Assembly (NCBI GenBank): GCA_963832745.1
Contig: CAWHVC010000002.1
Location: 384,001-448,000, forward strand
Length of the DNA: 64,000 nt
From: Candidatus Bathyarchaeota archaeon
GTDB taxonomy: Archaea; Thermoproteota; Bathyarchaeia; Bathyarchaeales; Bathycorpusculaceae
Direction of reading: 5' to 3'
The position numbers and the translations under genes were made by a program. Below are positions 3,095 to 59,107 of this stretch, piece after piece. Every line of letters starts with the position of its first letter. Positions within the stretch are counted from its first letter, which is position 1. The notes beneath the pieces were generated by a model. That model did no database searches. It was not told the origin of the DNA and was given only the letters and a program-made list of their open reading frames with translations.

Positions 3095-3812
3095 ATGAGC
3101 CAAAACCAAATTATTCAACAAATCCGCAGCGATTTACAAGCTAACTCGGATCAGCAAACCCGAGATGGCGCCAAACGTTACTTCAAAGAAGCCATCGTCG
3201 TTTATGGGGTAAAAACCGATTTGGTAGGCAAAATTGCTGCGAAGTATTGGAAAGAAGTTAAGTGCGTTGCCGAAAAAGGAGATTTTTGCGCTCAGCGAAG
3301 AACTCTACAAGTCCGGCGTTATGGAGGAAGCGTTTGTTCCTGCCAACTGGCTGCCCAATATTGCCGACCAATTTGAAAAAGAGGATTTGGCGACTTTCAA
3401 ACGTTGGATCGAAAACTATATTGATAATTGGGCGAAATGTGACGGTTTCTGTAACCACACGGTGGGCGACTTCATGATGCGGTTTCCGGATTGTGTTGGT
3501 GAGCTTTTGGTTTGGGCAAAATCTGGCAACCGTTGGCTTAAACGTGCAGCGGCGGTGTCGTTGATTGTTCCGGCGAAGAAGGGCATGTTTCTTGGGGAAG
3601 CTTTTGAGATTTGCGATTTGCTCCTCACTGACCCTGACGATTTAGTGCAGAAAGGGTACGGTTGGCTGCTGAAAGCGGAAACGGAAAAGTATCCCGACGA
3701 AGTGTTAGCGTACGTGATTAGGAACAAGGCGGTTATGCCGCGGACGGCGTTGCGGTACGCGATTGAAAAGTTGCCCAAAGAACAGAAAGCGTTGGCAATG
3801 AAGAAAGATTAG
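3095..3812 (+). CDS. DNA alkylation repair protein (AlkD-like HEAT-repeat glycosylase), frameshifted near 3263
   Basis: ORFs 3089..3376 and 3234..3812 join if one base is removed at AAG-T-GCG; motifs IDNWAKCD, WxKRAAAV, DLVQKGYGWLLK, RTALRYAIEK. Confidence 0.85.
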
Positions 3813-3819
3813 CACAGGT

Positions 3820-4041
3820 TTTCAACATGCTAATGAGGCGTTTTTCAGTTAATACTGACCTACCCCTCTTAGGAGTCTGCATAAGAATTTCAAAAGAACG
3901 GCAGTGAACAGCGAAATGCAGTTGGGCTCTAGCATGGCCCAGTAAAGCGTTAGTTTTTCTTTTTTTCACGCTCCGATTGATAAACCAGCATTCGAGCGTG
4001 CCCTTTAAAGAATTTTGGCGTTAAAAAAGCCTTAAAATAAA
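3820..4041 (-). repeat. conserved non-coding element, copy A (possible structured RNA)
   Basis: Four blocks shared with 53521-53821: TTTCAACATRCTAATG; AATACnGACCTACCCCyCTTAG; ACAGC..AATGCA..TGG.C.CTAGCATGGCCCA; CCCTwTAAAsAATTTTsGCGTTAAAAAAGCCTTAAAATAAA. The repeat is directly visible; the RNA interpretation and strand are inferred. Confidence 0.8.
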
Positions 4042-4058: not shown

Positions 4059-4862
4059 TTAAGCAGTATGACTGTTTTCAATTAGCTTGCTTGTCCTCCG
4101 CCGAAGCACAAAAACTATAACTGACAGCAATGCAATTGCCCCTGCAATAACAGTCAGCACAACCATTTCCCAGTCAGAACCCAACAAAACGTCAGTATGT
4201 GCAATGGGTTGATTCTGGACGTTTTCTGGGTTTAGGGTTGGCGTTGCTGTTGGGGTTATGGCGGATTGGTTTTCGCCAATGGTTAATGTTTGAATGCTGC
4301 TCCAATCGCTAGTTTCGCCATGGAACACCCAAGAATCAAGATCATACAGGTCGCCGCTGGTGCAAACACGATAGCCTATTTTTGTTTGAACCTGAACATC
4401 AATCTGGTCCCCTGCTTTTAGAGAATTTATTTTTAAACCATTCGTCCATGACCCATACGTTATTACTTTATAGCTTTCGTTCCAAACAGGATTCTCCGTA
4501 AAATTGTGCCAATCATTCTCGTAATGACCTTTAATTCTGACCTGCCAAGTTAAGAAAACAGAGCGGGGCGTATCTCCATCCATGTAAACACAAGGCGTAA
4601 ACGATTGACTATTAATCCCAATCTCAATCGTTTTGTTCTCTTCAGTAAAACCTCCACCCGTCTGAACAGTCTTTCCTGAATAGGGGTCAACACCATAAAC
4701 TGGCTCCACATAATACGAGCGATCAACATATCTCACTGTAATCTCTGGAACCGACGGCTTAACAATCATAGTCTGTGCGCAAGCAAATTCAATGAAAGCC
4801 AAGCTTGTAACAAGAATCCCCAGTAACGTCATACAGGTAAAGATTCTGCTTAGAGTTTTCAT
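4059..4862 (-). CDS. secreted, C-terminally membrane-anchored hypothetical protein
   Basis: Signal-peptide-like N-terminus, KPSVPEITV motif, Pro/Thr linker, C-terminal TM followed by RRR. Confidence 0.8.
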   Translation of the reverse strand: MKTLSRIFTCMTLLGILVTSLAFIEFACAQTMIVKPSVPEITVRYVDRSYYVEPVYGVDPYSGKTVQTGGGFTEENKTIEIGINSQSFTPCVYMDGDTPRSVFLTWQVRIKGHYENDWHNFTENPVWNESYKVITYGSWTNGLKINSLKAGDQIDVQVQTKIGYRVCTSGDLYDLDSWVFHGETSDWSSIQTLTIGENQSAITPTATPTLNPENVQNQPIAHTDVLLGSDWEMVVLTVIAGAIALLSVIVFVLRRRTSKLIENSHTA

Positions 4863-4959
4863 AGGTTTTGTTGGGTCTGGGAAGTGATTAAAGGGTTTTC
4901 GTAAACACTTCTTTACCTGCCCCAGTAAACAAACCTTGACTGCCACTAAAAAACTGTTT

Positions 4960-5040
4960 TTGGCTATAAAAATCGCCAATACCGACCTACCCCCCTACAG
5001 GTACACTGCATAGATTGAATATTAGACTGCAAATAGGTTT
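4960..5040 (-). repeat. partial copy (C) of the non-coding element
   Basis: TTGGC-N10-GCCAA hairpin, AATACCGACCTACCCCCCTACAGG, then GCATAGA...AATAGGTT matching 53535-53650. Confidence 0.7.
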
Positions 5041-5046
5041 GCTCAG

Positions 5047-5310
5047 TTAGGGTCCAAGAATCTTTTCAACTTCCACCAAATGCGCCGCCAACTTTTTGCC
5101 CTTCTCGCTCAAAGAGTACAGCGGTGCACCCGTAGACATGTCAACAGCCAAAAGCCCATTATCATCAAGGAATTGTTTGGCTGAATAGAATGCTTTTTGT
5201 CCTGCAACGGAGCCTTTGAGGATTTTTGTTGTTTTTGAGTTTGGGTTTTTGTTGAGAAACAGGATAAGCCTGATGACAGCGGTTAATTCATCAAACTCGT
5301 CGATTTTCAA
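5047..5310 (-). CDS. small winged-helix DNA-binding protein
   Basis: C-terminal YSLSEKGKKLAAHL wing/helix; paralogous to 53829..54110. Confidence 0.75.
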   Translation of the reverse strand: MKIDEFDELTAVIRLILFLNKNPNSKTTKILKGSVAGQKAFYSAKQFLDDNGLLAVDMSTGAPLYSLSEKGKKLAAHLVEVEKILGP

Positions 5311-5462: not shown

Positions 5463-5938
5463 ATGAAAAAACAAGAAACAACCCAACCCCCCAAAACACC
5501 AAACCCAGCCGACAAACTCCCCGAACCCCTCAAAACCAACTTCAAACAATACGCATTCAACTGCTCCCCAGCAATTTACCAACTCAAGGCTGCAGCAGCG
5601 CTAAAGCTTTGGAAAGACCGCGGCTATCGAGACATAACGTTTGATGAACCCATGCCCTGTGGGGGCAAATCGGTTTTTGTCAAGGTACTGGTAAGAAAGG
5701 AAGACAACACCATGATTGGGGTGGAATGCGCATCAACCCTCAGACTACAGCGACTAACTGCTCGGATTGCGCTTCTTCGGGCCTGTCTGCCGCCAGACAG
5801 CTACATAATAATAGTTTTCCCAGAGACCGCAGGTGACAGAATAACGAAGGCAACCGACATTGTTGACGAAGTATGGGTAACAGGCAAAGACGGCACGGTA
5901 ACCAGTTGATGTTTAGGTCTGCTTTTTACGAGGAATGA
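5463..5938 (+). CDS. hypothetical protein with degenerate PD-(D/E)xK-like fold; frameshift near 5901
   Basis: Paralog of 54230..54691 (ALKLW.DR, GVECAS, LLRACL..DSY.I.VFPETAG, DEVWVTGK). Adding one base near 5901 gives the tail QLMFRSAFYEE, matching the paralog tail QMLFASVLHLE. Confidence 0.75.
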
Positions 5939-29485: not shown

Positions 29486-29752
29486 TTGTCAGTTAACAAA
29501 AGAAGACTAATCCGCAAATGCCTTCTTGTACTAGCTGTCCTCACATCGGTAACAGTAGAACTGGCAATACTGTTAACGTTCCTAAACATGTACCGCTTAA
29601 TCGCAATAGAGCTGTACTGGACAGGGCTAATCGTGTTGCTTGCTGCATTTTTTGTTTCCATCCACATTCTGCAGACGGTTGCTGAAGTCAAATGCGAACG
29701 ATATGATAACCAATTAAAAACGTCAACAACAATTAGTTCAGAAAGCCCTTAG
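29486..29752 (+). CDS. small two-TM hypothetical protein
   Basis: 88 aa ORF with two hydrophobic helices. Confidence 0.5.
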   Translation: MSVNKRRLIRKCLLVLAVLTSVTVELAILLTFLNMYRLIAIELYWTGLIVLLAAFFVSIHILQTVAEVKCERYDNQLKTSTTISSESP

Positions 29753-29889
29753 GGGACCGGTGCTATTGGCGTTTTTCCAAACCAAAAACATGTTGAAGCC
29801 AACAGTATTGCTGAGCGTAAAGCTGGTAATGGGCAATTGCTTTTAAAAACCACCTGTACTTATATAGCCATTGAGGAATCAAGAACTTT

Positions 29890-32608: not shown

Positions 32609-33299
32609 TTACTCAGTTATGGCGGGTGTTGGGTTGGTTTTTTTCTTTATTAGGGGTAGTACGAATTCGAGTATTACTAGTGCGATTATGATTATGACTA
32701 GGATGATTGGTATGATGCTGAATTGTTGTGAAAGTAGTGCTAAGGAGCCAATCCATGGAATGCGCATCACTACTTTGCCATAAACATAATTTTGAGAAAC
32801 TGCACCATCGTAAGTGCTGCTTGGATCATCTGTGGCAGGATACCAGTGGTCAATGGCTTGTGTTGCCGGGTTAGGCCAAACATCTGGGTACCCGTTTCCG
32901 TCACCCTTAGTGTAGAAGTAGAGCGTTCCGTTTACTTCAACTGTGTTAACGATGCGGTGAACGATATTTGCGTGTGGATCATTCGCAGGCAGGGCAGGGT
33001 CTCGGAAGACTATTATGTCGCTGTTTGGGTAGTCTGTTTTAAGTCGTTTGCATCTACGCCTTGAATGACCAGTAAGTCGCCAATATGTAGTGTTCTTTCA
33101 AAGGTGTGTGCAATGGGGTCGCATGCGCCTGGTGGGATGCACATGCTGCTACTTGTTACTGTGAATAATGGAAAAATTTGTGTGTTTAATGCTGCTTGTA
33201 GTCCGAACCAGAAGCCTGCTACAAGTATCGGAATTAACGCTATGGTGATGCTGTTTTGAAGTATTCGTTTTTCCAAAGTCTTCTAAATGTTGTTGCCAA
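32609..33299 (-). CDS. signal peptidase I paralog 2 (two single-base frameshifts near 33249 and 33038)
   Basis: Colinear with paralog 3 (TSSSM, GDLL, IVHRI, TKGDGN) once two missing bases are restored. Confidence 0.8.
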
Positions 33300-33442
33300 T
33301 TTGCGTCTTCCGTTTTATCAAACAACGTGTTGAAGTTACTATAAAATCCTTCGATTAAATTTATCAAAAAAAGAAAATTGCGTGAGTAGTAAAATTTTGT
33401 TTAACTTACGTCAAATCTATTTATCTTTTCTGGAAGAGAGAA

Positions 33443-34123
33443 TCAAGTTGTCTTTAAAGAAGCGTGGTATTGCTCGATTGTGGTGGTTGTTGGGTTGGTT
33501 TTTTTCTTTATTAGGGGTAGTACGAATTCGAGTATTACTAGTGCGATTATGATTATGACTAGGATGATTGGTATGATGCTGAATTGTTGTGAAAGTAGTG
33601 CTAAGGAGCCGATCCATGGAATGCGCATCACTACTTTGCCGTAAACATAATCTTCTGAGATAGGACTCCAAGGATCCGTGCTTTCAGCTGGGTTAGGCCA
33701 AACATTCGGATACCCATTTCCGTCTCCTTTAGTCCAAAAGTAACGCGTACCGTTAATGTCCTCATACCTTACGATCCGGTGAACAATGTTAGCTTTAGGG
33801 TCATTAGCTGGCAAGTCGGGTCTTCTGTAAACAATAATGTCACTGTTTGGATAATCAGTTTTAAGGTCATTTGGATTTACGCCTTGAATGACCAGCAAAT
33901 CTCCAACATGTAGTGTTCTTTCAAAGGTATGTGCAATGGGGTCACATAGACCGGGTGGAATGCACATACTCTCACTTGTTACCGTGAACAACGGAAAAAT
34001 TTGTGTGTTTAATGCTGCTTGAAGTCCAAACCAGAAGCCTGCAACAAGAAGTGGAATCAAAGCTATGGTAACTGCTGTCTTGAAGTACTCATTTTTCCAA
34101 AGTCTTCTGAACGTGGCTGACAA
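33443..34123 (-). CDS. signal peptidase I paralog 3
   Basis: TSESM, GDLL, IVHRI, TKGDGN; TTG start inferred from paralog 2. Confidence 0.88.
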   Translation of the reverse strand: MSATFRRLWKNEYFKTAVTIALIPLLVAGFWFGLQAALNTQIFPLFTVTSESMCIPPGLCDPIAHTFERTLHVGDLLVIQGVNPNDLKTDYPNSDIIVYRRPDLPANDPKANIVHRIVRYEDINGTRYFWTKGDGNGYPNVWPNPAESTDPWSPISEDYVYGKVVMRIPWIGSLALLSQQFSIIPIILVIIIIALVILEFVLPLIKKKTNPTTTTIEQYHASLKTT

Positions 34124-34210
34124 CTTGCATCTTAACAAACAACGCAGTAAAGCTACTAAAATACTTCGATTATTTTTCAAAAAAAGAAAATTAAGGGATT
34201 AACAAAAATG

Positions 34211-39432: not shown

Positions 39433-42400
39433 ATGAAGCTCTCAAAAGCAATCACAAAACTATTAATCAGCATGATACTCCTATCCTGCTTTGCAACCCT
39501 ATTTAACGCGAAACCTGTTGCTGCAACAGGCATGAACGGCACCATAGTTTTTAATCAAACAGGTTTAGCATCAGGTACAAGCTGGACAGTAAAAATCGGC
39601 GCAAGCAATTATACATCCACAGGCAGTTCCATTTCTCAAACATGGATTGCTGACGTCCCATACAATTGGCAAGTGTATGTACCTGTTGGATATACGTCAA
39701 GCTCAACATTATCTGGCACATTTGCACTAAATGTTATAGGGTCAAACGCTAAACATCAATGTAGCGTTCACTCCTTTACAAAACTATAATCTTACTTTCG
39801 TTGAAACCGGTTTAGCTTCAGGAACCACTTGGGGAGTCACTTTTAACGGCGCCCAATATTCCTCCTCAACCCCCGTTTTAACCATCACTGGTTGCGCCAA
39901 CGGAAGCTACCCGTACACAATCGATACTCCTAACGGTTACTTAATAGGCACACAAGCCTCAGCAAAATTAACTGTCGCAGGTTCGAGTGTTGTTAAACCA
40001 GTTACTTTTGCTTCATCATCCTCATCTGACTGGTACATGAGTCGACGTGACGTACTTCACTCGGGGTACGCAGACACAGCAGCACCACTTACTAACAACA
40101 CTTTATGGATAACCAGTCTAAATGAAATAACAACTTCTTCACCAGCCATCGTTAACGGCATCTTATACATCGGTACAGGAAACGGAACCATTTACGCTTT
40201 AGACACTGTGGATGGCTCAATAATTTGGGATTACGTTACTGGTGGAGCAGTTAAATCGTCTCCTGCTGTAGTTGATGGGGTTGTTTATGTTGCTTCTGAT
40301 GATCAGTACCTTTACGCGTTGGATGCCGATGATGGCAGTTACATTTGGAGTTATAACGTTGGCGGTTCAAGTTATAATACTTCTCCCACTGTAGTTGATG
40401 GTACTGTCTACTTTGGTGCAAGTAACAAAGTCTTTTCAATAAATGCTACCGATGGAAGCCTTAACTGGGAAAAAACACTGGAAGGCAGCTATTTTTTGGG
40501 GTCATCTCCTACTGTTGTTGACGGCGTTGTTTGCTTTGGCATGTATGAATCCCGCAGAGTTTTCCTTTTAAACGCAACCGACGGCTCAGAAATCTGGAAT
40601 TACTACACCTGGAGTCACGTCTGCAGTTCACCAACTATCGTAGACGGAGTTATCTACATTGGTAACAATGAAGGCAGATTATACGCCCTGAATGTGACAG
40701 CCACTGGAGACCCATACCTGTGGGATGTACATTTGGGGGGCAGCAGTGCACAATTCAGTTCATCACCTGCTTACTGCAATGGCGTCATTTACATAGGCGA
40801 CACAGAAGGAACAATGTACGCAAGAAATGCAACTGATGGCTCAGAAATCTGGACAACCCCTGCAGGCGTTTTCCTTTTCTCTTCTGCTGCAGTTGCAGAC
40901 GGCGTAGCCTACATAGGTTCAAATGATGAAAACATGTACGCTTTCAATGCTACCGATGGTACGCTACTCTGGACGTATACTACTGACGGCGCAATATGGT
41001 CATCCCCTGCTATTGTTGACGGAACAGTTTATGTTGCGTCAGGTGACGGCAAGGTATACGCATTCAATACCCAGACATCTACAGTTACATTTAATGAAAC
41101 AGGTTTGCCCTCTGGAACAAGTTGGACAGTTACTTTAGATGGCATCACAAAAACAAGTAATGATAATTCAATTGAATTTACAGACATTGCATACGGCACA
41201 TACGACTACACAATTAACACCCCAACAGGCTACATTGCATCTGTCACTTCAGGTTCAATCACTGTAAACGGAGCAGACACCCAGCAAACAGTAACTTATG
41301 CTGCAATACCCTATAATTGGTGGATGCTCGGAAATGGCGTAACCCATACTGGATACTCCAACTCTACTGGGCCATTAACAAATGACTTATTGTGGTCCAA
41401 ATCGATAGCAGATCTTGGAATGGATCTGTCTGGTTGCGCAACGCCTGTGGTGGCAGATGGTGTTCTCTATTTGAAGCTTTCAGGCACCATATTTGCTCTT
41501 GATGCATACAACAGCACCCTAATTAGAAGCTACGATTTAGGTTCCTCCTATTATTGTCCACAGTCACCCGCCGTAGTTGATGGCGTCTTATACGCTGGTA
41601 CAGGCGCCGGTGAAGTCCTCGCATTCAACACCACAACAGGCGACATCATTTGGACTTTTACAGCTGATGGAGGCATATTGAGTTCTCCTACAATTGAAAA
41701 CGGAGTACTCTACATAGGCGCAAATGACAACAACGTCTATGCTATAAATGCAACTACGGGCGATCAGCTTTGGGCATATCAAACTAATGAGCGCATCTAT
41801 TCTTCTCCTGCTGTTTCTAACGGAATTGTCGTAGTTGGCTCTAACAATGGAATACTCTATGCTTTAGATGCCCATACAGGTAGCCAAGTTTGGAATTATT
41901 CAACATCATATTCGGCTAACAACGAGGCACCCTGTATTGTAGACGGCGTAGTCTATGCAGGTCAATACTATAGCTCGGATGGTAATTTCTCTGCCTTGAA
42001 TCTAACGACGGGAGCAAAGATTTGGAGCATCAGTAAGTCTGTTTGGGGTTCAGTCGCCTTTGCTAATAGTATCTTGTACATCAACTCAAATGCTGACGGT
42101 TATACTTATGCTATAAACGCCACAACAGGCGCACAATTATGGTCGTATAACACTTTGGCACGATATCTATCGCCCATAGTTGCATATGATGTAGTGTACG
42201 TTCAGGGCTCAACCGACCTGTATGCTCTTAATTCGACAAACGGTGACTTAATCTGGTCTTATCCGCTTTTCAGCATGATGCCGGGCTCAAGTTCTCCAAT
42301 CATTGCTGACGGTATAGTCTACGCGTTCAATGATGACGGAATGGGTGGACCGATGACAAGTGGCACAATATATGCTTTCGGTGTTCCTAATCAGTACACT

Positions 42401-44874
42401 TTAACAATGAATACAGTCGGCCATGGTACTGTTATTCCAGGAAACCAAACCTCAGTTGATGCAGGAACAACCTTGAATTTAGTTGCTATTCCTGACGAAG
42501 GCTGGGTCTTCTCTGGTTGGAGCGGAGATGCTTCAGGTTCAACAAACACAACCATAACCATGACCAGTAACAAAACAGTCACTGCAACATTCACTGAGGT
42601 TATATCTGTAAACTTAACGATGCTTACAGCTGGTCAAGGTTCAGTCACACCCGGAAACGAAACTTACACTCTAGGAACCAGTGTAGACTTAAAAGCAATA
42701 CCAGCTGCCGGCTGGAGTTTCAGCGGATGGACTGGTGACGCTTCAGGCATAGAAAACACAACAATCACAATGACAGGCAACAAGACGGTCACTGCTACTT
42801 TCACACAGGATACTTACTACCTTACAATGATTACAGTTGGTAACGGAAGCGTGAATCCAGGCAACAACAGCTACGCCTCAGGCACAACTATAGACATTGA
42901 AGCAATTAATGAAGTAGGCTGGACATTTGACGGTTGGAGCGGCGCGGCAGAAGGTCTAAGCAACACCACAATCACTATGAATGCCAACAAAACAGTAACA
43001 GCAACATTCGCACAAAACAACTACAGATTAACCATGATTACCATAGGCACGGGCAGTGTCACACCGGGAAATCAAACAACTTACCATTATGGCGACAACG
43101 TAGACATTGCAGCAATAAGCACCACTCCATACGTTTTCAGCGGTTGGAGCGGTAGCACATCAGGCAACACCAACAAAACAATTACAATCACCGGAAACAT
43201 GACAGTAACAGCAACTTTCGTAATCAACAGCCATACAGTATATGTTAATCAAGGCAGCCACGGGACCATCACACCTGGAACAGCAACCGTAAATGACGGC
43301 GGAAGCCAAACATTCACGATATACCCAGACACCGGCTACCACATAGTTGACGTTATTGTTGACAGCTCATCAGTAGGTGCAGTAACTTCATACCAATTTA
43401 CTAACATGCAAGAAGACCACATCATAACTGCAACTTTCGCAGCAAATGAGTACACTTTAACAATCACTACAATAGGTAATGGTTCAGTAACCGCAACACC
43501 AGCAACCGCCACCTACCACTACGGCGACATAGTTCAACTAAACGCTATTCCCAACAACGGCTGGTCATTCAACGGCTGGAGCGGCGACACACAAGGCACA
43601 ACTAACACAACCATCACCATTGATGGCAACAAGAACATCATTGCAAACTTTACACAAAATAGTTACCAAATAAGCTTCACTTTGACAGGCGTCGACTCTA
43701 CAGGTGTAGTCTTGACAGTTGACGGAGTGGGCTATACAGTAGCAGATCTGCCCCAAACCTTCAATTGGCTCTATGGTTCAGTGCATACTTTCGTATTCAA
43801 TTCAACCTTGCCAGTAAGCAACGATGAACGGTACGTTTGGAATATAACCGGGGGCCTTTCAACACTTAAAGAAGGCACATTAACCGTAACAGGTGCAGGA
43901 ACAATTGCTGGAGCATATACCACCCAATATTTGCTTACAGTAGCAACAAGTAAAGGAAGCACATCTGGAAGTGGATGGTACAATTCTGGAACATCAGCAA
44001 CTGCAGCAGTAAGCCAATCAACAGTAACTTTAGGTACAGACACAAGATACATCTTTGACGGCTGGAGCGGCGACGCCTCAGGTACACAAGAATCAATCTC
44101 TGTAACAATGGATGAACCAAAAACTGTAACTGCAAACTGGGAAACTCAGTACCGTGTCACTGTAACTGCTAACCCAGCAAATGGCGGAGCAACAACACCT
44201 TCAACAGCAACTTGGATGCCGGCAGGAACCCTTGATATTTCCTGCACTCCAAACGCTGACTATCTATTTACTTCATGGAGCAAGCTCGACTGTACAAATA
44301 ACCCTAACTTCACCATCGTCAGCTTCAACAACTGCCACAAATCAATGGACCTGGCACAATAACGGCGAACTTCAACCAAACAACACAAGTCTTTACCTCA
44401 AACCCTGATGGTAAAACAGAAGAATTAAAGCTGAAAGGAAACATTACGGCTTCTCAATTAACTAACCCAAGAATAGCCTCGATTCTAGCCTTACCACGAA
44501 AATAATGTTCACTGCTACACGGTCCAAGTGGAACAGTTGGATTTACCAACATAACAATCGCAAAGTCATCTGTTGCATACGGCACTAAACCCGTAGTCTA
44601 CATAGACGGCGAAAAGGCAGCTGACCAAGGCTACACGCAAGACAAAGACAACTATTACGTTTGGTTTACAACACACTTCAGTAAACACGAAATATACATA
44701 GAATTCACTTCAGACCAAGTCCAGCCAACAGTTCAGCCAACAGAAACATCAACACAGCCTCCTGCAACAAACGACTTCACCTTGCCAGCAGTCATCGCCG
44801 TAATAATCCTCTTTGCGGTCCTGATTGGTTTATTTATTCAACGGCGAATACACCAAAACCCCGCAAGTCAATAA
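39433..44874 (+). CDS. giant cell-surface protein: ETGL-type beta repeats, two PQQ-like beta-propellers, InlB B-like repeats, C-terminal anchor (several frameshifts)
   Basis: Signal peptide at 39433; SSPAV.DG.VY...YAL.A..G..IW repeats; GW.FSGWSGD repeats; pieces join across indels near 39746, 44279, 44340 and 44480-44520 to a TM plus RR tail ending at 44874. Confidence 0.8.
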
Positions 44875-51470: not shown

Positions 51471-53519
51471 TTGCCTAAAAAAGAATTTACAAGTTTCGAT
51501 GTTGCAGCTGCAGTTAAGGAACTTAAAGAGTCTGTTCTTGGTTCACGAGTGAATAATATTTATCAATTTGACCAAAAAACGGTTGTTTTTAAGCTTCATA
51601 AGACTAATTTGGCGTCGATTCGTCTTGTGGTTGAAGCGGGTCGAAGGCTTCATTCTACTGTTTATGCGGAGGAGAGTCCTTCTGAGCCGCCTCCTTTTTG
51701 TATGATGCTTCGTCAATACTTGCGTGATTCTTGGTTTGATAATATTGAGCAGTTTGAGTTTGAACGAATTGTTGTTTTGAGTTTTAGGACTAAAACTGGT
51801 TTGCTTCGGCTTGTTGTGGAATTGTTTGGGGATGGTAACATGATACTGGTTAATCCTGAGGGTGTGATTATTCAGGCGCTTTTTTTTAAACGTATGAGGG
51901 ACCGTAATATTTTGCATGGTGAAAAGTTTTTGTTTCCGCCTGCAATCGGGAAAAACCCGTTCAAGCTTTCTGAGGTTGAGTTGAAGATGGTGTTTGGGGA
52001 TTCGGGTGATGCTGAGGTTGTTCGTGTGCTTGCTCGTGGTGTTGGTTTGGGTGGTGTTTATGCTGAGGAGGTTTTGCTTAGGGCTGGTGTGGAGAAGACT
52101 GTGCATTGTAATGATTTGACTGTTGCTCAAGTTGCGGCTGTGTTTGGCGCGTTGGAGGGGTTGCTTTCTGTTTTGTCTTTGGGTAGGTTTGAGCCGTGTA
52201 TTGTTTTGGATGGGGATGAGTCTTATGTTGATGTTGTTCCTTTTCGTTTGCGGCGTTATGATGGTTTTGGGCGGAAAGATTTTGGGACGTTTAGTGAGGC
52301 TCTTGACGAGTTTTTTTTGAAGGTGAAGACGGCTGAGAAGGCGTTGGCGAGTGTTGAGGTTGACCGGTTGCAGGCTGAGGAGAAGCGGCTTAAACGGATG
52401 GTTGCTGATCAGGAGAAGGCTCAGGCGGATGATGATGCTAAGATGGAGCGGGATAGAACTGTTGGTAACACGATTTATGCGCATTTTGGTGAGTTGGAGG
52501 GTTTTGCGAATAAGCTTGTTGCTTTGAATCAGCGTGGTGTTGAGTGGAGTCAAGTTTTTGCTGGGGTGTTGGAGGATAAGCGTGCTGGTAAGGTTCCTGA
52601 GGTTTTTGTTGAGGGGATTGATGCTAAGAATGTGGCTGTGAACTTTTTTTTGGATGGTTTGCGGTTTAGTCTTAGTGTGCGTGAATCGATTTTTGATAAC
52701 GCGAATATGTATTATGAGCGTGGTAAACGTGCGAAGGCGAAGTCTGCGGGTACTGTGACGGCGCTTTTGGATTCTAAACGGAAGTTGGCGCGGGTGCAGC
52801 GGGAACTTGCGGAGGCTGAGCAGCTTAGGAGTATGAAGCCTGCGGAGATGCTTGAAGCGTTGGCGAAGCGTAAAATTGAAAGCAAGGAGTGGTTTGAGAA
52901 GTTTCGTTATTTTACTACGAGTGACGGGTTTTTGGTGGTTGCGGGCAAGGATGTGGTAACCAACGAAATCTTGGTCAAAAAGTACACGCAGCAAGAGGAT
53001 GTTGTGTTTCATGCGGAGATTACTGGTTCTCCGTTTGTGGTTGTTAAGGCGGAGGGGCGTGAAATCACTGACCAAGCCTTAAAAGAAGCCAGCGAATATG
53101 CGGCAGCTTTCTGTCGTGCTTGGCGTGAAAACGCTGGGTCGGCGGATGTGTATTGGGTTCGGGTTGACCAGCTTAGCAAGAGTGGGCCATCGGGCGAGTC
53201 GATTCCGCATGGCGCGTTTTTTGTGGTTGGGAAACGTAACTGGTTCCGTAATACGCCGTTGCGGTGTGCGGTTGGCGTGGTTGTTGGTGAAGAGGCGGAA
53301 TTTATTGGTGGTAGCGTGGATTCGGTGCGGGCGCGGGCGAAAGCGTTTGTGGTGTTGGTGCCGGGTGACTACAGCGGTAAGGACCTGCTTAAGATGGTGC
53401 TTAAAACCCTCACGCTTAAACTGTCTAAGGAGGATAAGGAGAAGCTGGGTAAAACATCGCTTGAAATGGTGCGGGAATTTATTCCGTACACCAAAGGGGC
53501 AATCAGCCAAAAACCCTGA
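51471..53519 (+). CDS. NFACT / Rqc2 (RqcH-like) ribosome quality-control protein
   Basis: FTSFDV, PPFCM.LR, ELFGDGN, GGVYAEE, WFEKFR.F..SDG.LV.AGKD...NE, SGE.I.HGAF.V.GKRN. Confidence 0.93.
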   Translation: MPKKEFTSFDVAAAVKELKESVLGSRVNNIYQFDQKTVVFKLHKTNLASIRLVVEAGRRLHSTVYAEESPSEPPPFCMMLRQYLRDSWFDNIEQFEFERIVVLSFRTKTGLLRLVVELFGDGNMILVNPEGVIIQALFFKRMRDRNILHGEKFLFPPAIGKNPFKLSEVELKMVFGDSGDAEVVRVLARGVGLGGVYAEEVLLRAGVEKTVHCNDLTVAQVAAVFGALEGLLSVLSLGRFEPCIVLDGDESYVDVVPFRLRRYDGFGRKDFGTFSEALDEFFLKVKTAEKALASVEVDRLQAEEKRLKRMVADQEKAQADDDAKMERDRTVGNTIYAHFGELEGFANKLVALNQRGVEWSQVFAGVLEDKRAGKVPEVFVEGIDAKNVAVNFFLDGLRFSLSVRESIFDNANMYYERGKRAKAKSAGTVTALLDSKRKLARVQRELAEAEQLRSMKPAEMLEALAKRKIESKEWFEKFRYFTTSDGFLVVAGKDVVTNEILVKKYTQQEDVVFHAEITGSPFVVVKAEGREITDQALKEASEYAAAFCRAWRENAGSADVYWVRVDQLSKSGPSGESIPHGAFFVVGKRNWFRNTPLRCAVGVVVGEEAEFIGGSVDSVRARAKAFVVLVPGDYSGKDLLKMVLKTLTLKLSKEDKEKLGKTSLEMVREFIPYTKGAISQKP

Positions 53520-53520
53520 A

Positions 53521-53821
53521 TTTCAACATACTAATGGCGCAGAAAAGCGCCAATACAGACCTACCCCCCTTAGCGTTTCCATAAAAGAGCTGAAAATATA
53601 GACCCCCTATAGGTTCCAGCATAGAACTGCTATTTGGATCCTAATAGGTTGGTATGAAAAATAAAGCACTGAAAAGCAGCAGACAGCAAAGACAGCACAA
53701 TGCACGTGGACACTAGCATGGCCCACAAATAGGACAAACAAACAATACCGCCCTAAACAAAACCCAAAACCCCAAACCAACCCTATAAACAATTTTCGCG
53801 TTAAAAAAGCCTTAAAATAAA
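53521..53821 (-). repeat. conserved non-coding element, copy B (possible structured RNA)
   Basis: Same four blocks as 3820-4041, plus a second C-string unit (53601-53650) matching 4991-5039; hairpin TGGCGC-N6-GCGCCA at 53535-53552. Confidence 0.8.
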
Positions 53822-53828
53822 GTGCATT

Positions 53829-54110
53829 TCAAAGAAGCTGTTCAATTTTGACTAAATAATCAGCAACTTGCCTGCCTTTCTCCGTCAACGAAACATCCAA
53901 TCTTCTGGTTCGCCTTTCAGGTGGCGACTGTTCAGTTAACCCGTTCTCGCTTAACAGTTTTAATGCTGAATATTTTGCGCCTTGGCTGCCTTGAACGTTG
54001 CTGAAAATTTCTGAGATTGAGGCTTTTTGTTTTTCCTTTAGGTAGACGATGATGCGGGGGGCGGTGGTTTGTTCAAGGATGGCAAGTTTTTCTTTGTTCA
54101 CGGGTTTCAC
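53829..54110 (-). CDS. small winged-helix DNA-binding protein
   Basis: RIIVYL...Y SALKLL.ENGL...SLTEKGRQVADYL; paralog of 5047..5310. Confidence 0.8.
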   Translation of the reverse strand: MKPVNKEKLAILEQTTAPRIIVYLKEKQKASISEIFSNVQGSQGAKYSALKLLSENGLTEQSPPERRTRRLDVSLTEKGRQVADYLVKIEQLL

Positions 54111-54119
54111 GTTATTGGT

Positions 54120-54228
54120 TATTGATTATCGTTAAGCAGTTTTTAAATTGATTTATAAATTATCGATTATCGATATTAAATAAATATATAAGCATGGGCT
54201 GTGTAATAGCGTATATCGAAAAACGATA
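54120..54228. promoter_or_regulatory. three 15-bp palindromic operator candidates around back-to-back TATA boxes
   Basis: TATTGATTATCGTTA (54120-54134), TATCGATTATCGATA (54161-54175), TATCGAAAAACGATA (54214-54228); TTTATAAA at 54152-54159 and TATATAAG at 54185-54192. Confidence 0.65.
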
Positions 54229-54229
54229 A

Positions 54230-54691
54230 GTGACGTGTTTGAAAATGGAAAGCCAACTAATATCCAAATTACCTGAAGAACTCAGGACAAAATACCTAAA
54301 ATACACACGAAAAAGCACACCAACAATTGAAACATTGAAGATTGCTACAGCCTTGAAGCTTTGGAATGACCGCAGCTTTAGAGACGTGCAGTTTGACGTG
54401 CCTTTAGTTTTTAGAGGCAGAACTGTTTTTGCTAAGGTTCTGGCGAAGAATGGGGATGGCGTCGTGTTTGGGGTTGAGTGTGCTTCGGTGGTTAGGTTGG
54501 GTTTGTTGCGTGCGCGGATTGAATTATTGCGGGCTTGTTTGCAGTCTGATAGTTATTTTATTGTTGTTTTCCCTGAAACCGCTGGAGAACGGGTTGATAA
54601 GGCAGTCAAGTTCGCTGATGAAGTATGGGTAACAGGTAAAAACGGTGTAGTGGCGCAGATGTTATTTGCATCAGTCTTGCATTTGGAATAA
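54230..54691 (+). CDS. hypothetical protein with degenerate PD-(D/E)xK-like fold
   Basis: Paralog of 5463..5938; likely start at ATG 54245. Confidence 0.8.
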   Translation: MTCLKMESQLISKLPEELRTKYLKYTRKSTPTIETLKIATALKLWNDRSFRDVQFDVPLVFRGRTVFAKVLAKNGDGVVFGVECASVVRLGLLRARIELLRACLQSDSYFIVVFPETAGERVDKAVKFADEVWVTGKNGVVAQMLFASVLHLE

Positions 54692-54840
54692 GCCCATGTC
54701 TGTTAGAATTTATTAATAATTTATGTCATGAAAGTAAAAAATCGTGCCTAAAAATAATTACAACTTCTAAAAAATGAAAAAATGAAAGTTTTTTTTGAAA
54801 AAATTTTATTAACAAAAAAGATGCTATATTAGCCAACCGA

Positions 54841-55887
54841 ATGGAAGTGCCGTTGGTTACGAGTAGTTTAGTCCTTAAGCCCTCAAAGGTTCTATGTTCA
54901 CTTGAAGATAACGAATTTGAGGAAATGATACATGATTGGCGTAGCACTTACAAAGGTAAATTGTATCAAAGAGTAGAATGGCTTGGAGGCAAAGGTGATG
55001 GCGGACGAGATGTTAAGTGCACTGGACTTAGTGATACTGAAATTACAATTTATCAATGCAAAAATTATGACAAAAAGTTAACCCCCTATTACATTTTCAA
55101 AGAAGTGGGCAAATGTTGTTATAACATTTTTAAGAAGGTTTATCCACTTCCAATAAAGTATCTGTTTATATCACCACATGGTGTCACCGCAGAAGTTACT
55201 GATTTATTTTCGAACCCTTTGAAACTCAAGGTCGATTTGAAAGCTGTATGGCCAAATACTTGTGAGACGCATATTCAAGCTTCCAGAATTCCATTAATCG
55301 GTGACTTTGAGAAGTTTATCGATAACTTTGATTTTTCAATTTTTAATTACGTAAGCCCCAATGAGTTTTTAGAAGATTTTGAAAATACGTGCTATTATTC
55401 AAAGTATTTTAAAATGATCAAAAAAGCGAGACCTCTTGGGCCATATGATGCACCTGAGCAATATGGAGAAAATGAGTTAGATTATATACAAAAATTATTA
55501 GCTGTGTACAAAGAATATTCTCAAGAAGAGATCGTTAATGAGGCTGTACTAAAAAGTCTAAAGCCTAAGTTATATGACGAATTTAAAAGACATCGATTTT
55601 ATTTCTATTCTGCAGATTGTTTAGCGGAATATTCAAGGGAAGTTTTTCCTCCAGAAATGCCTTGGTTTGAACACTGCAAAAAAGAGTTTTACTATGGAAT
55701 TATTGATGAGGTATCTGAGGATGCTGAACATGGTTACAGTCGTCTCAAAAAAGTAATCAAACGAGCCACAGATCTGGACATTAAATTAGGTGATGACCCC
55801 TCGGTTCGACTTAGAGTTCAGGATAAACGAGGTATGTGTCATCACTTGGCAAATGAAAGAGAGGATATTGTATGGACCAAGAAGTGA
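54841..55887 (+). CDS. ABC-three-component / Lamassu effector (Mrr-like nuclease plus C-terminal domain)
   Basis: EFEE...GGKGDGGRD...YQCK nuclease motifs; C-terminal FYSA..L...RGMCHHLANE..IVW. Confidence 0.8.
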   Translation: MEVPLVTSSLVLKPSKVLCSLEDNEFEEMIHDWRSTYKGKLYQRVEWLGGKGDGGRDVKCTGLSDTEITIYQCKNYDKKLTPYYIFKEVGKCCYNIFKKVYPLPIKYLFISPHGVTAEVTDLFSNPLKLKVDLKAVWPNTCETHIQASRIPLIGDFEKFIDNFDFSIFNYVSPNEFLEDFENTCYYSKYFKMIKKARPLGPYDAPEQYGENELDYIQKLLAVYKEYSQEEIVNEAVLKSLKPKLYDEFKRHRFYFYSADCLAEYSREVFPPEMPWFEHCKKEFYYGIIDEVSEDAEHGYSRLKKVIKRATDLDIKLGDDPSVRLRVQDKRGMCHHLANEREDIVWTKK

Positions 55888-56375
55888 ATAACTCTAAAAT
55901 GTCCATTTTTAACTCACCAATGGAAGTGGGTTTGAGGTTACTCTTCATCTTTTCAAAGACAACTGTTCCGCTTGATTTGCAGCGATTAATTCATTACAAT
56001 TACTTGTTGATTCATTCTGCAGATGCACCAGATGGTCCTGCTAGTATACATCCAGAACTTCCATTGCGATCTTGTGAAATGTTGGTCAATCGAACAATAC
56101 TAAAAAAGGGGTTAAACCTCTTATTGCTTAAGGGGCTTGTTTTTGTTAGTTACTCTGAGAAAGGTATTGTTTATTCTAAGAATGAATCGACGGATGATTT
56201 TGTTGGTTATTTTCAATCAGAATATTCCCAACGATTGAAAGAACGAGCAGAATGGTTATGCTTAACTTTCGATAAGCTAACAGACGGACAAGTAACTGAT
56301 TTAATTGAAAATAATCTAGGCAAATGGGGTACTGAATTTACTCCTACTCGTGATGAGGTCGATGAAGATGTCTGA
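55872..56375 (+). CDS. ABC-three-component middle component (LmuC-like)
   Basis: FNSP.EVGLR.L, LQRL..Y.YLL.HS.D...GP.S.HP..P.RS.E; overlaps both neighbours. Confidence 0.8.
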   Translation: MDQEVNNSKMSIFNSPMEVGLRLLFIFSKTTVPLDLQRLIHYNYLLIHSADAPDGPASIHPELPLRSCEMLVNRTILKKGLNLLLLKGLVFVSYSEKGIVYSKNESTDDFVGYFQSEYSQRLKERAEWLCLTFDKLTDGQVTDLIENNLGKWGTEFTPTRDEVDEDV

Positions 56376-58212
56376 GGGTATCTATTTTTCCAAAATATCT
56401 GTTCTTGGTCGCAATAAACCACCAGCGGAAATTAATTTAACTAAAGGATTAAATGTCATATATGGTCCATCCGATACTGGCAAATCGTACATTCTAGAAT
56501 GCCTAAATTATGTGTTGGGTGGGAAGGATGAACCAAAACACATTCCTCAATCGGAAGGGTATCAACGAATTCAAGCAGAGATACGCGTTTTTGAAGGAAA
56601 AACCCTAACGCTCTCTAGGCCTTTTAAAGATAATAAAATTTACTTGGCTGAGTGCTCATCTGAAGGCTTCGATAAAGCAGAGCCAATTCCACTATCGAGT
56701 AGACACAGTGAATTTACCGATAATGTTTCAATGTACCTTCTGTCTTTATTGAATTTGAATAAAAAAGTTATCAAAAGTTCAGTTTACAATGATAAGAAAA
56801 ACTTGAGTTTTAGAAGTCTTGCAAGATTATGTCTCATCAAGGAAGATCGGATAATAACCTTAAAATCGCCTATTTATGATGGCATTGTTACCGATGAATC
56901 AGAAAGCAAATCCACTTTCAAGTTATTATTAACAGGTCAGGATGACAAGGATTTGCCTAGTTTTGAGAATCCTGAACATGGAAAAAGCAGAATAAAGGGT
57001 AAGATTGACTTAATAAAAGCGGATATTGAAAAAAAGACTGGAGAATTAGCTGAATTTAGAAAAAAAGGCGAACAACTAAATAGTGAAGAGATAAATGTTC
57101 AAATTCATAAGTTATTGACAATTGTTGAAAACGCACATCGAGAGATATTGGCTCAAGAAAAAGAGCGTGCCGAAATATATTCTCAAATGAACCATCTCGA
57201 AGCTGTCTTAATCCAAAATGAGGAACTGAAAAAAAGGTTTGAACTCTTAGATAAGTCATATTCAACCGATTTAGATAGACTTGAATTTATCAACGAGGGT
57301 AAATCAGGTTTGGATCAGTTGGGTGATGTAACTTGCCCGCTTTGTGACACAGAGATTGACGGTCAGTTACTTGAACCACATGATGATATGGGCGTTAGTT
57401 TATTGCGTTCAATTAGAGCTGAATATACTAAAATTGCTCGAAAGAAATCAGACTTATCGAAAGCTTTAGCTGATGTTGACGAAAAAATAAGCTCTACCCA
57501 AACCTTAATTTCAGATAAAACTTTGCAATTTAAAAAAATTGATGAATACATTATAAATAAACTTAAACCTGTGCATACTGTGAACTCTAAAAATCTGGAT
57601 GAGTATATGCGGCTAAGAAGCAATAAGTCTAAAGCCGATTTAATTGAAGAGCAAATAGCTGATCTTAATATTTCCTTGAGACAATTTGATCGGGCGCTTG
57701 GACACATGCAGGAAAAAGCGCCACCTGTAGAAGTTCCAGTTGACTATTACTCAGAATTCTGCTCAAATATTCAGGAAATATTGGTTTCTTGGGGGATTAA
57801 TTCTGATGAAGTTGAGTTTAATTTAGGTACTAATGATATTATCATAAATGGAAAGAGCAGAGACCTTTTTGGGAAAGGTTATCGTGCGATTTTCTTTTCG
57901 GCTTTTATGATGGGTTTGCTTCAGCATTCTCTAAAGAGAAAAACAGGTCATCCTCGCTTTTTAATGCTTGATTCTCCACTTACAACTTTTAAGGGCAGGG
58001 ATAGCGGTTTAAAAGATTCTGATGAAGAGATTCCCCCTGAAATAATAAACCAGTTCTTTGAAGGTATTGCAAATTTGGATTATTTGCAAAGAATACAGGT
58101 TATCGTACTAGACAATCGTGAACCCCCCAATAGCGTGAAAGCAAGAATAAATCATATATTTTTCTCGAAGACTCATGAACCAAGTAGTCGTTATGGTTTT
58201 TTCCCAACATAA
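56368..58212 (+). CDS. Rad50/SMC-like ABC ATPase (LmuB-like, short type)
   Basis: Walker A GPSDTGKS, coiled coil with CPLC hook, degenerate signature FGKGYRA, Walker B FLMLDSP. Confidence 0.88.
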   Translation: MSEGIYFSKISVLGRNKPPAEINLTKGLNVIYGPSDTGKSYILECLNYVLGGKDEPKHIPQSEGYQRIQAEIRVFEGKTLTLSRPFKDNKIYLAECSSEGFDKAEPIPLSSRHSEFTDNVSMYLLSLLNLNKKVIKSSVYNDKKNLSFRSLARLCLIKEDRIITLKSPIYDGIVTDESESKSTFKLLLTGQDDKDLPSFENPEHGKSRIKGKIDLIKADIEKKTGELAEFRKKGEQLNSEEINVQIHKLLTIVENAHREILAQEKERAEIYSQMNHLEAVLIQNEELKKRFELLDKSYSTDLDRLEFINEGKSGLDQLGDVTCPLCDTEIDGQLLEPHDDMGVSLLRSIRAEYTKIARKKSDLSKALADVDEKISSTQTLISDKTLQFKKIDEYIINKLKPVHTVNSKNLDEYMRLRSNKSKADLIEEQIADLNISLRQFDRALGHMQEKAPPVEVPVDYYSEFCSNIQEILVSWGINSDEVEFNLGTNDIIINGKSRDLFGKGYRAIFFSAFMMGLLQHSLKRKTGHPRFLMLDSPLTTFKGRDSGLKDSDEEIPPEIINQFFEGIANLDYLQRIQVIVLDNREPPNSVKARINHIFFSKTHEPSSRYGFFPT

Positions 58213-58308
58213 CTTTTTGAGATCATACGTAGAAACCTGTTTTCTGGTAGGCGCTGATTATGGTTAAGTTTATTAGTGTTCTTTCTTAATTTTTGTTGGT
58301 GACTTGTT

Positions 58309-59076
58309 TTGAAGTGGCATTTTATAGTTTTGTTTTCGTTTTTGCTTATGTTGGGTTTAGTTAGTCCTGCTCTTGGAGAAATGATGCATGAAGGCATTGG
58401 CGTGACTGATGGTGATTCTTTTTCTTACAGTTACCTTTGCTATTTTGATTCTAATGATTCAGGTTTTAGTATGCCTGCGGATTTTTCTTGGATTAATCAA
58501 ACACAGTATTACATGATGAACGTGACTGGCGTTAGCGGGCAATCGGTCAATTATGATACACACATGTACTTCGACAACGGCACAAGCATTGCCGGCTACG
58601 GTTACATGAATATGCAGGATGGCGTTAACTCGATGATGCAGGGTTACAACCCGATGAGCGGCACCTATAACGGTAACTACTTCTTTATGCAGTCAAACGT
58701 TGGCATGATGGGCAGAATGTACCCTTCCAACACTAACAGTCCAACAGTAAACGACACAGTAACACGCAGTTACCCCGACGTCGAAAGAACCCTTAACCAC
58801 ATGTACTTTATCCTCAACCAAAACGGCGACATAAACCAAACCGACTACTACTTCGACCAAGCAACCGGCGCAATGGTAGAATGGAGAGAACAATACATCC
58901 AAACACACGGCAGCCTGCAAGCAAACAGCACACAAATCATGCAGTTAACCCAATCAACCGCTTGGACAGTACCCGAATTCCCAACACTAATCATTATACC
59001 ATTAATTTGTGCAGCAACCGCAGCAGCCATCTTGCTAAAAACAAAAAACAAAAACCTCCAAATAAAACTAAAATAA
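58309..59076 (+). CDS. secreted Met-rich protein with PEF-CTERM-like sorting signal
   Basis: Signal peptide; C-terminal VPEFPT, TM and Lys-rich tail. Confidence 0.78.
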   Translation: MKWHFIVLFSFLLMLGLVSPALGEMMHEGIGVTDGDSFSYSYLCYFDSNDSGFSMPADFSWINQTQYYMMNVTGVSGQSVNYDTHMYFDNGTSIAGYGYMNMQDGVNSMMQGYNPMSGTYNGNYFFMQSNVGMMGRMYPSNTNSPTVNDTVTRSYPDVERTLNHMYFILNQNGDINQTDYYFDQATGAMVEWREQYIQTHGSLQANSTQIMQLTQSTAWTVPEFPTLIIIPLICAATAAAILLKTKNKNLQIKLK

Positions 59077-59107
59077 AAAGCTAAAAAATTAGCCCTCATT
59101 CTTTTTC

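Follow-up and report, generated by a model that had tools for sequence, protein, structure and literature searches.

Copies A (positions 3820–4041) and B (53521–53821) of a repeated non-coding element in a 64,000-nt stretch of DNA from a Candidatus Bathyarchaeota archaeon (the window) are juxtaposed members of two independent repeat families and not one RNA. Both families are genus-restricted and, as far as the literature that we found goes, previously undescribed. We hold with moderate confidence that the first of these side-by-side families, built from the modules M1 and M2, is a mosaic DNA repeat, and that the second, the module M3, is a promoter-bearing unit for a candidate small RNA. The window lies on contig C2 (C2:384001-448000) of the studied genome, G000 (3.02 Mb, five contigs, 99% complete), in which a full-length archaeal small-subunit (SSU) rRNA is present. 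Other G-numbers denote comparison genomes, 24 from the genus and 16 from outside it, with G008 representing a sister species. Bathyarchaeia are abundant uncultured archaea of sediments and soils, and the non-coding part of their genomes is essentially unexplored. Among open-access full texts we found no publication on repeat families in this group, and a 2025 survey of repetitive extragenic palindromic (REP)-like repeats in bacteria and archaea contains 0 occurrences of "Bathyarchae".

Copies A and B belong to a high-copy intergenic repeat family

Four blocks common to the two copies, located in the preliminary description, were confirmed with their positions by reading and by pairwise alignment. 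Identity between A and B is 20/22 in the AATACnGACCTACCCC..TTAG block and, in the AT-rich block, 37/40 over the range first described and 38/41 over 4001–4041 vs. 53781–53821. The distal words UUAGCAUG (3833–3826) and UUAGUAUG (53534–53527) stand directly before UUGAAA, as had been claimed, and the minus-strand hairpins UGGGC-CAUGCUAGA-GCCCA (3941–3923) and GUGGGC-CAUGCUAGU-GUCCAC (53726–53706) are present. Dinucleotide shuffles of the window supplied the chance levels. The 16-nt ACCTACCCC block (AATACNGACCTACCCC), with up to 2 mismatches allowed, gave 3 matches in the window vs. 0.03 expected, far above chance, the third copy lying at 4978–4993. Two matches each were obtained for the 16-nt TTTCAACAT block (TTTCAACATRCTAATG; 0.19 expected) and a 24-nt AT-rich word (0.00 expected). 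The 13-nt hairpin word alone was not significant (2 vs. 0.93 expected; 24 of 100 shuffles reach 2).

Whole-copy nhmmer queries over G000 returned more than 70 hits for A and more than 110 for B. Copy B was then cut into M1, M2, and M3, and each module was iterated by nhmmer over the genome (E ≤ 1e-3), which yielded 102 M1, 128 M2, and 25 M3 hits in 148 clusters. The element had been presented as one of two copies; in fact the window carries two further partial loci and the genome 148. Within clusters the modules always follow the order M1>M2>M3 on one strand, an inverted module being seen in only 2 of the 148. The most frequent types are M1-M2 (57 clusters), M2 alone (40), M1 alone (21), M1-M2-M3 (10), and M1-M3 (3), the rest being other types. 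Gene context was evaluated with crude gene calls (open reading frames, ORFs, of ≥90 aa, taken greedily); 145 of the 148 clusters were intergenic, i.e., outside these ORFs, at a median distance of 22 nt to a stop codon and ~105–120 nt to a start. The four orientation classes of the flanking genes are about equally filled (43, 39, 35, and 31 clusters), with no preference, and therefore the arrangement convergent on an upstream housekeeping gene, to which the preliminary description had drawn attention at A and B, is an accident of the window and not a property of the family.

M1-M2 behaves as a mosaic DNA repeat

The M1 consensus consists of TTTTCAACATryTAATGG, a hairpin of 3–6 bp, and CCAaTAgcACCTACCCCCctTAG, often preceded by (TAG)CACTG. 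For M2 the consensus is ACCCcCTATAGGTTTcTGCATAgAatttCTAaTAGGatCCaAATAGGttGG, similarity stopping at GGTTGG; its last unit, CCWAATAGR, is found as 2–4 repeats at 11-bp spacing in many copies, and the module also holds a GGATCC-centred near-palindrome. RNAalifold applied to 44 tight M1-M2 composites predicted next to no structure, with -0.1 kcal/mol for one strand and 0.0 kcal/mol for the other, and the single-sequence folding z-score of M1-M2 averaged -1.0 on both strands. When mutual information with average-product correction was calculated, the top pairs were all neighbouring columns, with no long-range covariation. These coupled columns are block variants: TTTTT/AAAAA in the M1 loop, AA/TT in TAATGG/TTTTGG, and GC/CG. 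Two mirror states are seen in the loop of the M1 hairpin, T5 in ~49 and A5 in ~22 of 78 aligned copies (e.g., window 53538–53552), and the orthologous B copies of G000 and G008 differ in this state, which suggests a DNA-level inversion between the short inverted arms. Results of these analyses indicate that M1-M2 is not a folded RNA and that it behaves like a mosaic DNA repeat of the REP, bacterial interspersed mosaic element (BIME), or BOX type.

In the mechanism that we propose, M1-M2 would be a ~100-nt non-coding mosaic DNA element that spread into ~140 gaps of G000 and many gaps of the sister species, and that is assembled from the words TTTTCAACAT and ACCTACCCCC, the small hairpin with the T5/A5 loop, and 2–4 CCWAATAGG units 11 bp apart. 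It would function as DNA, most likely by offering a protein repeated sites for binding or recombination, as in REP/BIME and BOX, and it is exactly at such elements that accessory cassettes vary between species.

Other roles were considered for these modules and rejected. For M1 as a transcription terminator, the T5/A5 state was compared with the orientation of the adjacent gene (25/12 vs. 13/8; Fisher p = 0.78); the two show no relation, which leaves a terminator role unsupported, and the lack of orientation bias of the elements counters it as well. A crude k-mer scan of the genome detected no regularly spaced array of the kind expected for repeats derived from CRISPR. Coding potential was dismissed too, the short ATG-initiated frames in M1 and M3 being broken by 1-nt length differences between copies.

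With 148 loci, three modules, and a fixed order, the elements have the make-up of high-copy extragenic mosaics such as REP, BIME, and BOX. The likeness to BOX of Streptococcus pneumoniae (boxA-boxB(n)-boxC) and to BIMEs, which are made of REP units, extends to short, non-coding, intergenic sequences in ~100 or more copies, composed of a few modules in fixed order that may be missing or repeated, restricted to a species or genus and not bound to one gene orientation (PMC3049150, PMC2817692). The present family differs in its host, an archaeon, and in that one of its modules, M3, stands as an independent family equipped with a promoter-like word. Unlike REP, it shows no G+C-rich palindrome (the M1 stem has 3–6 bp and no consensus fold), its modules are collinear rather than alternating, and no REP-associated Y1 transposase was found (PF01797, 0 matches). 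BOX transcripts are described as structured, whereas no stable RNA fold is predicted for M1-M2. Size (~100–300 nt), copy number, intergenic position, patchy presence among close species, and truncated copies also recall MITEs (miniature transposable elements with inverted repeats). Unlike in MITEs, there are no clear terminal inverted repeats (by eye a weak 12–14-nt resemblance of CAACATAyTAATGG to the reverse complement of CCWAATAGGTTG), no parent insertion sequence was found, and near-identical copies are absent. What is gained is a defined mosaic repeat, present in high copy number, by which the borders of variable gene content in sister species are marked.

M3 carries a strand-specific hairpin and a promoter-like word

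On the plus strand the M3 consensus starts with AAAGCAgTGAACAGCAaAATGCAgtCGGGCaCTAGCATGrCCCATT; after 50–75 variable nt, which fall into two subtypes, it continues with CCyTATAAaCAATTTTGGCgttAAAAAA. Pairing was evaluated in two sets, a 30-copy MAFFT alignment that was not fitted to a model and 53 copies from six genomes (alignment A6). In the former, the 5-bp helix is 93.1% paired in the minus sense vs. 107/145 (74%) in the plus sense, with double changes in two pairs on the minus sense. In the latter, 93.2% of 263 cells pair on the minus sense; for the plus sense, arithmetic gives a minimum of 187 and a maximum of 205 paired cells out of 263 (71–78%), the 18 cells classed as "other" being unassignable. 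The difference stems from 54 U.G cells that become C.A if read on the plus strand. Double changes occur in 3 of the 5 pairs (6 cells), a count that 0 of 500 shuffles reached, while the paired percentage was reached by 2 of 500; sliding the partners by 1–3 columns, as a control, left 19–55% pairing. The outer pair is U.G in 35 copies, U-A in 8, G-C in 2, and C-G in 1, and the closing pair C-G in 29, U.G in 19, and U-A in 3. The small hairpin and its assignment to the minus strand, both put forward at the outset, are borne out by these values, and the minus-sense hairpin is probably formed in an RNA.

The word AAATT[GC]NTT lies 44–72 nt upstream of the M3 core (RNA sense) in 44 of the 53 copies, whereas neither the opposite strand of this upstream stretch nor the 140 nt downstream contain it (0 occurrences each). 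Read on the minus strand, M3 is best conserved at GCCAAAATTG(T/C)TTAWAGG, and the promoter of the tRNA-Met gene in the window (GAAAATGTTTAAAT) has the same shape, i.e., a transcription factor B recognition element (BRE) with a TATA box. A longer version of the promoter word is found 67 times in the genome, 12 of these in M3, and 46 of the 55 others are intergenic. The promoter points towards a same-strand gene at 13 of 25 loci and at the other 12 runs towards the 3′ end of a gene in convergent orientation.

These observations bear on the alternative that all modules are protein sites on double-stranded DNA (dsDNA) only, whether for a chromatin or regulatory factor at phased iterons or as a promoter cassette serving genes nearby, the hairpin being an inverted-repeat binding site and its G.U pattern a result of transition bias. 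A duplex site should be strand-symmetric, yet 54/263 cells are U.G in one sense and C.A in the other, and double changes preserve M3 pairing. Orientation of the promoter towards a same-strand gene in about half of the M3 loci would fit such sites, but not its facing the 3′ end of a convergent gene at the remaining loci. The alternative draws further on M2, with its 2–4 CCWAATAGG units at 11 bp and its near-palindrome, on columns of 95–99% conservation beside those of ~50%, on orthologues being better conserved than four-fold degenerate sites, and on the lack of a fold in RNAalifold. Taking both sides together, we consider it improbable that dsDNA binding explains all modules.

For the promoter-bearing small-RNA reading of M3, the proposed scheme is that of a ~130–150-nt unit with its own archaeal promoter on the minus strand, which would drive a small non-coding RNA. 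This RNA would begin with a variable leader of ~20–45 nt, continue with the 5-bp G.U-tolerant hairpin presenting the conserved loop CAUGCUAGU, and end in a conserved U/G-rich tail, GAnUGCAUUKUGCUGUUCAnUGCUUU. In the putative promoter word at a set distance and orientation, the short conserved hairpin, the intergenic position, and the conserved single-stranded tail, M3 resembles multi-copy archaeal small RNA genes. It is unlike them in its high copy number (25), in having no Rfam match at E ≤ 10, and in showing no C/D or H/ACA boxes, as read from the sequence. At gathering thresholds Rfam 15 gave the tRNA-Met alone in the window, and at E up to 10 the two copies gave chance-level hits to Histone3 (13.3 bits) and rli117 (9.7 bits), or nothing. 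The candidate, with its recognisable promoter, offers a multi-copy, strand-specific target for metatranscriptomes.

Several points weigh against the combined reading of M1-M2 as a DNA repeat and M3 as a small-RNA unit. On the M3 alignments A6 and A2, RNAalifold returns 0 pairs; the window hairpins A and B do fold, but with a stability that does not exceed that of shuffles (z = -1.05 and -0.45), and their 111-nt contexts have z = +1.0 and +0.8. Alignment A6 was fitted to the structure of the model (R1, a covariance model of the hairpin region with 53 positions) and hence leans towards the helix. The M3 copies are related; the three U-A cells of the closing pair belong to similar copies of subtype a and may go back to a single event. 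As G.T is tolerated in single-stranded DNA (ssDNA) too, the strand asymmetry cannot separate RNA from ssDNA, and transcription of M3 is predicted from its sequence. For M1-M2, the search gave no binding protein, transposase, terminal inverted repeat, or target duplication; its mode of spread, like the role of an M3 RNA, is inferred. The context counts depend on the crude gene calls described above.

Two observations concern the position of M3 relative to M1. At several G005 and G007 loci (L083, L089, L090, L085, and others) the M3 core is followed by the word ...CAACATGC[TC]ACCACACCCACAC..., which resembles M1 in a relative orientation opposite to that in G000. In G000 itself, a segmental duplication (C1:136645-137153 and C5:349829-351118) carries the same M3 and M1-M2, with ~70 nt between them at one of the two loci and a surface-protein gene of 1 kb at the second.

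M1 and M3 do not form a conserved long-range pairing

The preliminary description had joined M1 to M3 in one structured minus-strand RNA or ssDNA, with the hairpin loop CAUGCUAG pairing to the distal UUAG(C/U)AUG as a pseudoknot. With G.U allowed, all 8 nt pair on the minus strand in 4 of 11 composites (A, B, and two others) and on the plus strand in 0, and the M3 hairpin itself is supported. However, 7 of the 11 composites have 1–3 mismatches between loop and distal word; in four composites the loop varies (CUAUCAUG, CUGGCAUG, UUAGCAUA, plus strand) and none of these variants is compensated in M1, so that there are 0 compensatory changes in all. The M1 word varies freely, whether M3 is present or not (CATACTAA in 15 cases, CATGTTAA in 14, CATATTAA in 12, CATACTTT in 9, and CATGCTAA in 4), the fully complementary form, CATGCTAA, being rare. 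The word is kept in ~80 M1 copies with no M3 nearby, M3 is present without M1-M2 in G007, and the distance from loop to distal word ranges from 25 to 193 nt among composites. In G005 and G007, CAACATGCTA stands after M3 in the same sense as the loop and therefore cannot pair with it. Given the free variation and the lack of compensation, the complementarity at A and B is thus a heptamer shared in opposite orientation and not a conserved contact, and we consider a single pseudoknotted M1-M3 molecule almost certainly wrong. Of the proposed structured RNA or ssDNA element, then, the minus-sense M3 hairpin stands, while M1-M2 shows no fold and the pseudoknot finds no support. As a caution, a pair of copies whose changes are compatible with G.U pairing can turn out to be the visible part of a repeat family, and sequence words common to repeats can mimic long-range pairings.

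Distribution and age of the two families

The whole-element query matched 8 of the 24 comparison genomes from the genus and 1 of the 16 from outside it. With the M2 query we obtained at least 40 matches in G008, 9 in G005, 2 in G010, 1 in G007, and 1 short match in G040, whereas model R1 detected 17 copies of M3 in G007, 9 in G008, 6 in G005, 2 in G010, and 1 in G023, next to the 25 nhmmer hits in G000. M1-M2 is expanded in G000 and one sister species. That G007 is nearly devoid of M2 yet carries 17 M3 shows the two families to be independent.

Contig C9 of G008 is syntenic with the window at ~80–83% nucleotide identity, and each of copies A and B has an orthologue on it, immediately behind the same stop codon. 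In four more distant species, G005, G001, G003, and G014, unrelated and unalignable intergenic DNA occupies these places. Seven orthologous module pairs of G000 and G008, from a 120-kb syntenic block, are 0.64–0.88 identical; random paralogues within G000 have a mean identity of 0.67–0.74, and the most similar pair among 60 random pairs sampled per module reached 0.89–0.95. From these paralogue and orthologue identities we conclude that the repeat family is old, with no recent burst. At four-fold degenerate sites of the adjacent NFACT gene, identity between G000 and G008 is 138/250 (0.55). Column conservation is strongly position-dependent, with 99% beside 45% in adjacent columns. The copies are held near the consensus either by column-specific selection or by conversion among copies.

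Could the copies be decaying, functionless relics of an extinct element that share blocks by common descent? Near-identical copies and a partner transposase were not found, and many copies are truncated, with 40 solitary M2 and 21 solitary M1, as relics would be. Against decay stand the jump in conservation between adjacent columns and the identity of orthologues, which exceeds that of four-fold degenerate sites. Moreover, prokaryotic genomes lose neutral DNA fast, and functionless copies would be expected to be quickly deleted. We regard the relic explanation as very improbable.

Gene content at the elements and the question of mobility

At both copies a small winged-helix protein lies between the element and a protein of ~150 aa that we call p150, a family restricted to Bathyarchaeia. 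On the A side the winged-helix gene (5047–5310, minus strand) abuts M2 with its 3′ end and is followed by p150 (5463–5909, plus strand); on the B side the corresponding genes are at 53829–54110 (minus strand, 3′ end abutting M3) and 54230–54691 (plus strand). Both pairs are paralogous, with 32% identity over 81 residues for the winged-helix proteins and 56% over 130 residues for p150. There are 8 p150 paralogues in G000, several of them degraded by frameshifts or stops, and 7 come after an M3 of subtype b, separated from it by a variable small gene. We found 91 homologues, unnamed or "hypothetical" save one "predicted metal-binding protein", the named organisms being Bathyarchaeia/Bathyarchaeota. 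Pfam, NCBIfam, and PADLOC gave nothing for p150, none of the 91 homologues has a Pfam domain, and phmmer against PDB returned chance-level hits only. The AlphaFold (AF2) model has a predicted local distance difference test (pLDDT) value of 91.9 and an alpha-beta-beta-beta-alpha-beta core. The top Foldseek hits are the Card1 nuclease domain, the XisH family, EndoMS/NucS, Bax1, and Can2 (E 2.5e-4 to 5e-3, template modelling (TM) score up to 0.59), the Card1 nuclease domain and XisH being nearest. The model predicts that p150 is a protein of the PD-(D/E)xK (restriction-endonuclease-like) fold.

A second family met near the elements is that of a 306-aa protein encoded at 4059–4979 (minus strand) of the window, which has a signal-like N-terminus, a C-terminal membrane anchor, and no family match. 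This surface-protein family has ~14 distant paralogues in G000, 6 of the 14 with a module within 600 nt, and at C3:709662-710679 one of its genes lies between M1 and M2.

At three loci (A, B, and C2:366442) the difference in gene content between G000 and G008 starts exactly at an element. The extra 5.9 kb of G000 at locus B comprises p150, the winged-helix gene, and a Lamassu system, and adjoins the tRNA-Met. The Lamassu system is complete (54841–58212; LmuA, 348 aa, E = 5e-75; LmuC, 167 aa, E = 2e-42; LmuB, 620 aa, E = 1e-143) and lies between the p150 module and the tRNA-Met gene (59736–59810); the region 53800–59686 has no counterpart at the syntenic place in G008.

Such borders bring in the alternative that the whole of M1-M2-M3 is a non-autonomous mobile element, the hairpin being a signal for an ssDNA recombinase and the promoter an outward-facing by-product. 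In its favor, the elements are dispersed, lineage-restricted, collinear mosaics, M1 starts immediately behind stop codons, at conserved positions, and species differences at the three loci begin exactly at an element. All 8 p150 paralogues lie within 600 nt of a module vs. a background of 311 of 2865 crude ORFs (10.9%), to which the 6/14 of the surface-protein family may be added. Tyrosine recombinases gave 8 matches over the cut-off in G000. Hairpins of ssDNA tolerate G.T wobble, and the pairing found here is asymmetric between the strands; in this strand-specific, G.T-tolerant hairpin and in their place at the borders of variable gene cassettes, the elements resemble attC sites and the ends of IS200/IS605. 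Integrons occur in Archaea. Unlike attC, the loci are dispersed singly, with no cassette arrays and no long imperfect stem with R''/R' cores, and, unlike in IS200/IS605, neither a Y1 transposase nor TnpB was found in G000.

Indeed, the 99%-complete genome yielded no TnpB, no Y1/HUH transposase (Y1, PF01797: 0 matches, while control genomes respond), and no IS110-type enzyme. A parent insertion sequence was not found in G000, other transposase families not having been searched singly; no protein family at ≥80% identity has more than 3 members there. The compared sites of G000 and G008 differ by whole gene blocks, with no clean empty site in which a target duplication could be read. Also speaking against mobility of the whole are the absence of near-identical copies or a visible recent burst (random paralogues 0.67–0.74), the lack of a consensus hairpin on either strand in M1-M2, its abundant part, and the different species distributions of M3 and M1-M2. 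Finally, the best-conserved part of M3 is the promoter word, which an accidental by-product leaves unexplained. We judge a mobile element comprising all three modules to be unlikely.

As a mobilising enzyme, p150 was tried and rejected. It was not found in G008, which is rich in M1/M2, and is therefore a passenger of repeat-rich borders rather than the spreader of M1-M2. Its matches in G007 and G005 (4 loci) have no module within ~1.5 kb, and downstream of its stop codon the 8 copies of G000 share no conserved DNA. One M3 core lies 2.2 kb from a p150 of G007.

A more speculative arrangement is dispersed, integron-like exchange, in which M1-M2 would provide portable landing or recombination sites for accessory cassettes swapped from genome to genome (XisH-like p150 nuclease modules, the Lamassu island, and surface-protein genes) and the M3 RNA would guide or regulate the exchange. 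It is brought up because of the three element-bounded species differences, the constant proximity of p150 to modules, and the presence of XisH, whose PDB title is excision-controlling factor, among the closest small-protein structural relatives of p150; the conserved M3 loop also matches the M1 word. We give this scheme little credence.

Arrangement of the modules in the window

Copy A starts with an M1 at 3819–3873 on the plus strand (nhmmer hit C2:387819-387873) made up of TTTTCAACATGCTAATG, a short weak hairpin, and AATACTGACCTACCCC; the family 5′ word, TAGCACnG, has its first letter at 3810 and takes in the stop codon of the gene at 3234–3812. Of its M2 a truncated start (CCCCTCTTAGGAGTCTGCATAAGAATTTC; 3863–3891, plus strand) is present and the iteron half is absent; it was recognized by eye against the M2 consensus and falls below the nhmmer threshold. 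M3 of subtype a, the candidate small-RNA unit, covers 3898–4041 on the minus strand (nhmmer hit C2:387898-388030; alignments A2 and A6), with the hairpin UGGGC-CAUGCUAGA-GCCCA at 3923–3941 and the BRE/TATA-like word CAAAATTCTTTAAAG, shaped as in the tRNA-Met promoter, at 4003–4017, both on the minus strand. Upstream of the promoter word, at 4018–4041 on the same strand, lies the conserved T-rich block TTTATTTTAAGGCTTTTTTAACGC, 24/24 identical in B and with its T-run kept in other genomes; it is probably the terminator of the gene at 4059–4979 and/or an insulator.

In copy B, M1 (53521–53573, plus strand) begins directly after the TGA of the NFACT gene (51471–53519). M2 (53602–53666, plus strand), with the words CTATAGG, CTATTTGG, and CCTAATAGG, accounts for the 74-nt "insertion" relative to A: the gap in the pairwise alignment arises because M2 of copy A is truncated while copy B holds a full M1-M2-M3. 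M3 of subtype b, with a G/U-rich minus-strand leader, extends over 53684–53821 on the minus strand and includes, on that strand, the hairpin GUGGGC-CAUGCUAGU-GUCCAC at 53706–53726 and the BRE/TATA-like word GAAAATTGTTTATAG at 53783–53797. The two remaining loci of the window are the 3′ half of an M1 with a full M2 at 4955–5042 (plus strand) and a solitary M1 at 29751–29797 (minus strand), which has an orthologous M1 in the sister species G008.

Elsewhere in the window, positions 32609–34207 contain a tandem duplication of ~820 bp with copies 73–95% identical, and the genes at 40252–44086 have internal repeats at 123-bp and ~210–430-bp spacing that look like repeated protein domains.

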